NCBI RefSeq assembly: GCF_013167455.1
Contig: NZ_CP038328.1
From: Escherichia coli O157:H7
Lineage (GTDB): Bacteria; Pseudomonadota; Gammaproteobacteria; Enterobacterales; Enterobacteriaceae
Length of the DNA stretch: 64,000 bases
Direction: 5' to 3' (one strand)
The notes under the pieces: generated by a model
The model's input: only the letters and a program-made list of their open reading frames with translations
Databases searched by the model: none
Told to the model about the DNA's origin: nothing
Translations under genes and position numbers: made by a program
In this document: one piece after another, positions 49,450 through 50,252 of the stretch
Position numbering within the stretch: the first letter of the stretch is position 1
How the letters are laid out: each line of letters opens with the position of its first letter

Positions 49450-50252
49450 ATGAACGCATTATTAACCATCCCTTTAAAGAACGTTTACGCAAGGGCGAAG
49501 TGCAAATTGGTCTGTGGTTAAGCTCAACGACTGCCTATATGGCAGAAATTGCCGCTACTTCCGGTTATGACTGGTTGCTGATTGACGGGGAGCATGCGCC
49601 AAACACCATTCAGGATCTTTATCACCAGCTACAGGCGGTAGCCCCCTATGCCAGCCAACCCGTGATCCGTCCGGTGGAAGGCAGTAAACCGCTGATTAAA
49701 CAAGTCCTGGATATTGGCGCGCAAACTCTACTGATCCCGATGGTCGATACTGCCGATCAGGCACGTCAGGTGGTGTCTGCCACGCGCTATCCTCCCTACG
49801 GTGAACGTGGTGTTGGGGCCAGTGTAGCACGGGCTGCGCGCTGGGGACGCATTGAGAATTACATGGCGCAAGTCAACGATTCGCTTTGTCTGTTAGTGCA
49901 GGTGGAAAGTAAAACGGCACTGGATAACCTGGACGAGATCCTCGACGTCGAAGGGATTGATGGCGTGTTTATTGGACCTGCGGATCTTTCTGCGTCGTTG
50001 GGCTACCCGGATAACGCCGGGCACCCGGAAGTGCAGCGAATTATTGAAACCAGCATTCGGCGGATCCGTGCTGCGGGTAAAGCGGCTGGTTTTCTGGCTG
50101 TGGCTCCTGATATGGCGCAGCAATGCCTGGCGTGGGGAGCGAACTTTGTCGCTGTTGGCGTTGACACGATGCTCTACAGCGATGCCCTGGATCAACGACT
50201 GGCGATGTTTAAATCAGGCAAAAATGGGCCACGCATAAAAGGTAGTTATTGA
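49450..50252 (+). pseudogene. rhmA: 2-keto-3-deoxy-L-rhamnonate aldolase RhmA with 5' frameshift
   Basis: ATG at 49450 encodes MNALL then shifts frame and stops at 49519-49521; the rest ([17 protein letters not shown]...) is intact in ORF 49500..50252. Confidence 0.65.

Follow-up and report, generated by a model that had tools for sequence, protein, structure and literature searches.

What has become of the L-rhamnonate pathway in Escherichia coli O157:H7? The question is raised by a 64,000-nucleotide stretch of contig NZ_CP038328.1 (assembly GCF_013167455.1), referred to here as the window, in which the genes rhmR, rhmD, rhmT and rhmA follow one another in the same order as in K-12. The reading frames of two of these genes, rhmT for the transporter (YfaV) and rhmA for the aldolase (YfaU), are broken. 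A preliminary description of the window had proposed two independent frame lesions in an otherwise intact operon, and hence a pathway that is decaying in this lineage, unless both lesions are artefacts of assembly. We find that rhmA has lost a single A and that rhmT is split by one extra T, which is part of a scar left by the insertion sequence (IS) IS629. The two lesions most probably represent genuine decay of the operon in this lineage, by which the aldolase step would be effectively lost or severely reduced. We estimate the probability of this overall reading at about 0.75.

The native start codon of rhmA is ATG 49450 (all features described here are on the + strand unless stated otherwise). 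It is preceded, at a spacing of 4 nucleotides (nt), by the Shine-Dalgarno (SD) sequence AAGGAA (49440..49445), whose duplex with the 3′ end of 16S rRNA is calculated at −6.1 kcal/mol. As had been noted earlier, translation from this ATG departs from the aldolase frame, and the residual open reading frame (ORF) at 49450..49521 consists of 23 codons followed by TAA at 49519-49521. The aldolase frame lies at −1 to that of the ATG; it stays open through 49437-50252 and reaches the normal C terminus. Alignment of the 5′ end with a K-12-like genome, with strain XD35, and with a second O157:H7 genome reveals that a single A is missing from codon 7, at window position 49467/49468. The ancestral CAAT has become CAT (49467..49469), which reduces codon 7 from AAT to AT. 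In the region of codons 6 to 8, XD35 has ACC AAT CCC and K-12 has AGC AAT CCC, whereas the window has ACC ATC CC. The aldolase is intact from Pro8 onward, and not only from about codon 9 as first thought, and beyond this residue the window ORF differs from the K-12-like sequence at one position (D103 versus E). A functional gene has its ORF in frame with a start codon and a ribosome-binding site. Unlike K-12 rhmA, the window gene does not, for the aldolase ORF is out of frame with its own ATG and SD.

By alignment, the window gene is the orthologue of the characterized K-12 YfaU/RhmA, a class II aldolase of the HpcH/HpaI type. The ancestral RhmA of the O157 lineage matches the K-12 structure in PDB (2VWS) over residues 1-267 with E = 1e-175. 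The product of 49500-50249 matches the Pfam domain HpcH_HpaI (PF03328) with E = 2e-67 over profile positions 1-220 of 221, and this domain corresponds to residues 19-245 of full-length RhmA. His49, Arg74, Glu153, and Asp179 (YfaU numbering) are all kept in the translated aldolase frame. The numbering of the Glu and Asp metal ligands of YfaU is reportedly that given by Rea and colleagues in 2008. For EcHpaI, the residues cited are Arg70 and His45 (PMC8560999). Because the lesion is defined against orthologues, its chance occurrence is not a concern.

How widespread is the deletion, and how old? The window derives from a typical E. coli O157:H7 strain, and the 241 bases around the lesion (49380-49620) are 100% identical to those of O157:H7 chromosomes. 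Among 5,426 complete E. coli genomes, this rhmT-rhmA junction is matched in 4,169, which leaves 1,257 (∼23%) without a match, and an exact 60-mer centred on the lesion is present in 263. For each of the two protein products annotated for the deletion-bearing allele, at least 1000 contigs are on record. The age of the event was addressed by restoring the A in silico and searching the genomes again with the resulting 242-mer. The restored sequence is 100% identical in twelve genomes. Ten belong to the O55:H7 group (CB9615, RM12579, DEC5A, DEC5B, DEC5D, DEC5E, TB182A, USDA5905, and two unlabelled strains), and the other two are the sorbitol-fermenting O157 strain 493/89 and the atypical O157:H7 strain LSU61. 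Because the deleted 60-mer is present in 263 genomes and the restored sequence in O55:H7, 493/89, and LSU61, this comparison places a genuine deletion on the stem of typical O157:H7, where it is fixed.

Whether this deletion abolishes the aldolase depends on how well ribosomes can bypass it. There are three bypass routes: initiation or reinitiation at GTG 49500, a −1 slip on the sequence C_CCU_UUA_AAG, and initiation at ATT 49458. From published rates, none of them would be expected to bring expression above a few per cent of the ancestral level.

The first of these routes was the one raised in the preliminary description. It is a possible start, but only one of the three, and RefSeq uses ATT 49458 instead. 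Ribosomes would either initiate at GTG 49500 or, after ending at TAA 49519-49521, scan back ∼19 nt to restart there, to yield an active aldolase of 250 amino acids that lacks residues 1-17 and preserves the last step of the pathway. As had been stated, this ORF (49500..50252) is the longest one in the aldolase frame with a canonical start, and it is also the model adopted for rhmA in the curated Sakai record (NP_311157.1). The product retains the entire HpcH_HpaI domain, an AAGG motif is located upstream of the GTG, and GUG initiation can reach 10-100% of AUG initiation in a good context. However, the SD-like match is weak (−4.2 kcal/mol with a 3-nt spacer), and 24% of random positions in the window have one as good. 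Moreover, the shortened protein would lose its N-terminal helix. AbHpaI has an extra N-terminal helix at residues 6-11, roughly residues 7-12 of RhmA by alignment, and this N-terminal segment is conserved, since close PDB homologues align from residue 5-6. Even wild-type YfaU is reported to be poorly soluble. Finally, the window strain and no fewer than 159 other genomes have a broken transporter, an observation that speaks against a maintained function of the pathway. On these grounds it is unlikely that the last step survives by way of GTG 49500.

The second route begins at the native ATG with its strong SD. After the deletion, the ATG frame reads ATC CCT TTA AAG, in which the heptamers C_CCU_UUA and U_UUA_AAG overlap (49470..49479). 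Both fit the X_XXY_YYZ pattern when read in the ATG frame, from which the aldolase frame is displaced by exactly −1. By calculation, slipping on either of them would yield a protein of 267 amino acids in which N7I and F9L are the sole changes relative to the ancestor. In a survey of E. coli, C_CC.U_UU.A and U_UU.A_AA.G both shifted at >0.10% without stimulators, compared with a background of 0.055%, U_UU.A_AA.G was among the efficient motifs, and the best motifs reached ∼0.3% unstimulated (Sharma et al. 2014, PMC4066793). The window sequence therefore resembles known −1 sites, such as those of dnaX and IS3-family transposases, in having zero-frame slippery heptamers and a functional ORF in the −1 frame. 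Unlike these sites, it has neither a stimulatory structure nor an upstream SD nor conservation, and its expected efficiency is below one per cent. Predicted folds of 49480-49570 and 49430-49530 are no better than those of shuffled controls (z = 0.22 and 1.03), and no GGAGG-like or other SD-like element is present 6-17 nt upstream of the heptamers. Without a stimulator, such motifs shift at about 0.1-0.3%. Furthermore, the slippery arrangement came about by accident from the ancestral codons CCC UUU AAA. These are read in frame in the ancestors and in all other E. coli, and the two-frame arrangement is found only in typical O157:H7. The predicted product of the slip is absent from protein databases, which list annotated ORFs only.

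Because stimulators and conservation are lacking, we do not file the rhmA sequence as a case of programmed frameshifting. It is at most an adventitious leak. Frameshifting that corrects indels has been called 'savior' frameshifting (Sharma et al. 2014, PMC4066793; Atkins et al. 2016, PMC5009743), and slippage of this kind would make the rhmA of typical O157:H7 a translationally leaky hypomorph and not a null allele. We regard such a leaky state as quite improbable, and it is very improbable that the slip delivers aldolase in physiologically relevant amounts. If leakage does occur, rhmA would be a natural and datable case of adventitious savior frameshifting at a recent indel. Rescue by transcriptional slippage was also considered and was rejected, as the longest runs at the lesion are only 3 nt. 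A search of Rfam near the lesion returned no matches at E ≤ 1.

The third route is the one that RefSeq models. Its PGAP annotation starts yfaU at ATT 49458 (49458..50252; 264 amino acids; WP_027868265.1), as it does in every typical O157:H7 genome examined, and if this model were correct the gene would be intact and would encode a near-full-length, functional aldolase. ATT 49458 is the sole near-cognate start in the open aldolase frame that preserves the N-terminal helix, and AUU starts are known in E. coli, where infC and pcnB are the only confirmed examples. Against this model, AUU initiation yields 0.02-3% of AUG initiation even when optimally placed in a good context. The sole SD, at a distance of 12 nt, belongs to a perfect AUG located 8 nt upstream of the ATT, and this AUG should capture the ribosomes. 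A natural AUU start of the infC and pcnB type would be expected to have an SD of its own at functional spacing, no competing AUG, and conservation among relatives, and ATT 49458 does not have this combination. It is the product of a recent deletion and is not conserved, the ancestors having used ATG. An active aldolase from this start is therefore highly improbable.

The ATT model also has a counterpart that reveals how such models arise. In strain YSP8-1 (NZ_CP037910.1), rhmA is disrupted by IS1, and PGAP likewise 'rescues' the gene as a yfaU of 266 amino acids that starts at a TTG within the end of the IS. Because of this second rescue, we conclude that PGAP gene models of this type are the output of an algorithm and are not evidence of start usage. 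Neither ATT 49458 nor GTG 49500 is well supported as a start codon. The rhmA frameshift itself is flagged neither by RefSeq/PGAP nor by the curated Sakai record.

The second lesion lies upstream, in rhmT. The 1,290-nt gene starts at ATG 48142, which has a strong SD (−8.3 kcal/mol). Its N-terminal part (48142..48687) ends prematurely after a change of frame, at TGA 48685-48687, and alignment to intact yfaV identifies the C-terminal part in the shifted frame (48641..49432). The break is caused by one extra T at 48655, which converts GGGG-CATCC to GGGGTCATCC. This exact allele is present in four other complete genomes (ECP19-598, 17B6-2, G5295, and FRIK1989), and RefSeq flags yfaV as 'frameshifted' in ECP19-598.

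The frame lesion reported earlier in rhmT is therefore real, but it is not a simple slip. In Sakai and TW14359, rhmT is interrupted by IS629/IS1203. The insertion site reads GGGGCATCC before the element, and the far end of the element reads GGTTCA where it meets TCCCGG. More fully, the junctions join TATGGGGCATCC to TGAACCGCC at one end and CCGGGGCGGTTCA to TCCCGGCTGG at the other, with TCC as the target duplication. The Sakai record already labels rhmT a pseudogene, and a 60-mer spanning the junction of rhmT with IS629 is matched at full length in 152 genomes. The window sequence GGGG-TCA-TCC (48651..48660) comprises the last three bases of IS629 (TCA) and the TCC of the target-site duplication.

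Two sister alleles are found at the same site, together in four further genomes. The first, TATGGG-TTCA-TCC, is carried by the UK strains 644-PT8, 319, and 180-PT54, has a net gain of one base, and is annotated as frameshifted. The second, TATGG-TTCA-TCC, is carried by CEC13002 (locus 1501-1559, equivalent to window 48626-48685), has wild-type length, and remains in frame with a Gly-to-Val change. The yfaV of CEC13002 is annotated as intact despite this IS-derived scar. All three alleles keep the T(T)CA of the IS629 terminus. Because the extra T is located at the IS629 site, with terminal bases of the element and TCC retained, the apparent frameshift in rhmT is best read as an imprecise excision scar of IS629. 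The pattern has two hallmarks of such a scar, namely IS629 at the identical site in relatives and residual terminal bases with the duplication at the empty site.

Descent of the window allele from an IS-bearing ancestor can be compared with a single informative nucleotide polymorphism. The window shares C at 49256 with Sakai, TW14359, and EDL933, as opposed to PV15-279 and LSU61. This distribution is consistent with such descent but does not prove it. In the strains that share 49256 C and carry IS629, the element has an identical position and orientation. In EDL933, rhmT is intact (locus 2264-3553), yet this strain shares 49256 C with the IS629-bearing strains. This suggests that the EDL933 lineage underwent precise excision of IS629 and was not always free of the element.

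The excision probably took place by microhomology end-joining of the IEE type. The iee gene is located on SpLE1, outside the window. When copy-out-paste-in IS elements are excised, approximately one IS length is lost between microhomologies of 2-4 bp, and the retained flanks may intrude into the IS (PMC9943667; bioRxiv 10.1101/2023.06.07.543989). The rhmT alleles agree with this description. The scar junctions at rhmT fall in a G run that could pair with the GG of ...CGGTTCA, although the window allele, in which GGGG is joined to TCA, has no obvious microhomology at the junction. As in the IEE-promoted excision of IS629 and other IS3-family elements in O157:H7 (Kusumoto et al. 2011; Calvo et al. 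2023, PMC9943667), the rhmT scars involve the ends of the element, with 3-4 terminal IS bases and TCC retained. Unlike the products in those studies, the rhmT alleles are natural and are deduced by comparing genomes, not from observed events.

Alternatively, the extra T in rhmT could have arisen by ordinary slippage during replication and have nothing to do with IS629. Only one base is inserted, beside the homopolymer GGGG, and since the window and 644-PT8 alleles differ by one substitution, the series could go back to one event with point mutations added later. However, the inserted base is T and not G, and it is located, within a gene of 1,290 nt, only 5 nt from the exact insertion point of IS629 used in 152 genomes. 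The sequences TCA-TCC and TTCA-TCC reproduce the IS629 terminus and the target duplication, and three distinct alleles cluster at this one site. Ordinary slippage is thus a highly unlikely source of the extra T, and the IS629 scar remains the preferred explanation.

Could the rhmA deletion have an IS629 origin as well? An element inserted with a TCC duplication between AATCC and C, and excised through a CA microhomology, would yield ACCATCCC, but this proposal is untestable speculation. The product would be indistinguishable from the simple loss of one A in the AA pair. No genome carries IS629 at the rhmA lesion site, and 4,167 of the 4,169 junction matches are full length.

Finally, the two frame breaks, or one of them, might be suspected of being errors of sequencing or assembly, because single-base indels are the commonest type of error and because the rhmT change abuts a G run. 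This suspicion can be dismissed on counts of genomes and contigs. The same rhmA deletion recurs in 263 independent complete genomes, with both of its products on at least 1000 contigs each. Likewise, four other complete genomes carry the very same rhmT allele, and four more have one of two related alleles at this site.

The two lesions are independent events, as had been proposed, and differ widely in age and spread: the rhmA deletion is fixed in typical O157:H7, and the rhmT allele of the window marks a small sub-lineage. A likely history would begin with fixation of the one-A deletion in codon 7 of rhmA in the ancestor of typical O157:H7. From then on the aldolase would have been made only through inefficient bypass routes, and the last step of L-rhamnonate breakdown would have been effectively lost or severely reduced. 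Later, much of the lineage would have acquired IS629 in rhmT, and the element would then have been lost several times, sometimes cleanly (probably in EDL933) and sometimes with a scar left behind. In the sub-lineage of the window, imprecise excision would have left GGGG-TCA-TCC with a net gain of one base and a truncated transporter. No sigma-70-like promoter site is found in 49000-50400, and thus none between rhmT and rhmA. For this reason, rhmA presumably relies on transcription that reads through rhmT, and a break in rhmT should have a polar effect on rhmA.

Several observations weigh against this account of decay. Apart from the missing base, the remaining 260 codons of rhmA are intact, and residual function is possible. 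Both rhmR and rhmD are intact, as is rhmT in EDL933 and many other typical O157:H7 genomes. In RefSeq as in the curated Sakai record, rhmA is annotated as protein-coding. The lineage is too young for the lack of further mutations in rhmA to be informative about selection in either direction. We found no published data on expression, the proteome, or growth that bear on the pathway in O157:H7.

The intact part of the operon is as the preliminary description had it, with the same proteins as in other O157:H7 genomes. The gene rhmR (yfaX; 46083..46865) encodes a regulator of the IclR family (WP_000894166.1) that is also present in O157:H7 genomes and in LSU61. The gene rhmD (46880..48085) encodes L-rhamnonate dehydratase (WP_000174589.1), a protein common to all O157 loci examined. 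RefSeq starts it at ATG 46880, for which the SD is calculated at −6.4 kcal/mol.

Signs of decay in this operon extend beyond the window strain, in agreement with the earlier proposal of a decaying pathway. They include IS629 in the rhmT of 152 genomes, deletion and IS1 disruption in other E. coli, and the lack of the rhmA 5′ region in ∼23% of complete genomes. In the swine strain XD35 (NZ_CP089142.1, 2444-4053), a deletion removes rhmD and fuses partial rhmR and rhmT pseudogenes but leaves rhmA intact. In this strain the operon has decayed by an independent route of its own. In YSP8-1, the IS1 element in rhmA is flanked by a 9-bp duplication, CAATCCCTT, equivalent to window 49466-49474, and lies on the very codons of the O157:H7 lesion (locus 1012-1800). 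Overall, the rhm operon appears to be dispensable in E. coli, as judged from the genomes compared.

Further change in rhmA within typical O157:H7 is scarce. Downstream of the lesion there are zero differences between the window and six other typical O157:H7 loci, including EDL933, Sakai, and TW14359. In the UK scar sub-lineage (644-PT8 and 319), a C-to-T change at 49671 results in P75S, beside the catalytic Arg74 (WP_053920058.1), and is consistent with relaxed constraint. We considered later mutations in rhmA as a test of relaxed selection but abandoned it for lack of power, since the six typical loci are identical and only the P75S of the UK strains was seen.

In the stepwise model for the evolution of O157:H7 from O55:H7, the lineage is defined in part by loss-of-function frameshifts, such as the lesions in uidA and in the sorbitol operon. 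The rhmA deletion resembles these in being a small indel that is confined to typical O157:H7 and affects a dispensable pathway for a carbon source. It differs in that RefSeq masks the lesion with an ATT start and does not flag a pseudogene. We found no description of rhm lesions, or of IS629 in yfaV, in O157:H7 in the searchable literature. The rhm operon would add one more lost catabolic pathway to the stepwise picture. The deletion also serves as a clean marker, by which a single base distinguishes typical O157:H7 from O55:H7, sorbitol-fermenting O157, and strains of the LSU61 type.

The masked lesion calls for caution with annotations, as the aldolase is scored as present in metabolic models and pan-genome tables even though it is probably not made normally. 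At rhmT, the alleles form a natural series that comprises IS629 present, a loss that was apparently precise, and three scars, two of them +1 and the third in frame. This series documents products of IS629 excision in wild populations and could be used for the study of IEE-type end-joining. Both lesions are new, well-documented instances of known processes. They represent ordinary gene decay and leave current concepts unchanged.

The region 3′ of rhmA is also variable. The gene rpnE/yfaD (50293-51219, − strand) has a structure unlike that in K-12-like genomes, with indels near 50407-50418, and RpnE resembles ISNCY/PD-(D/E)XK 'transposases'. In K-12-like genomes there is additional sequence at rpnE, which is annotated as a partial hypothetical gene together with a shorter rpnE.

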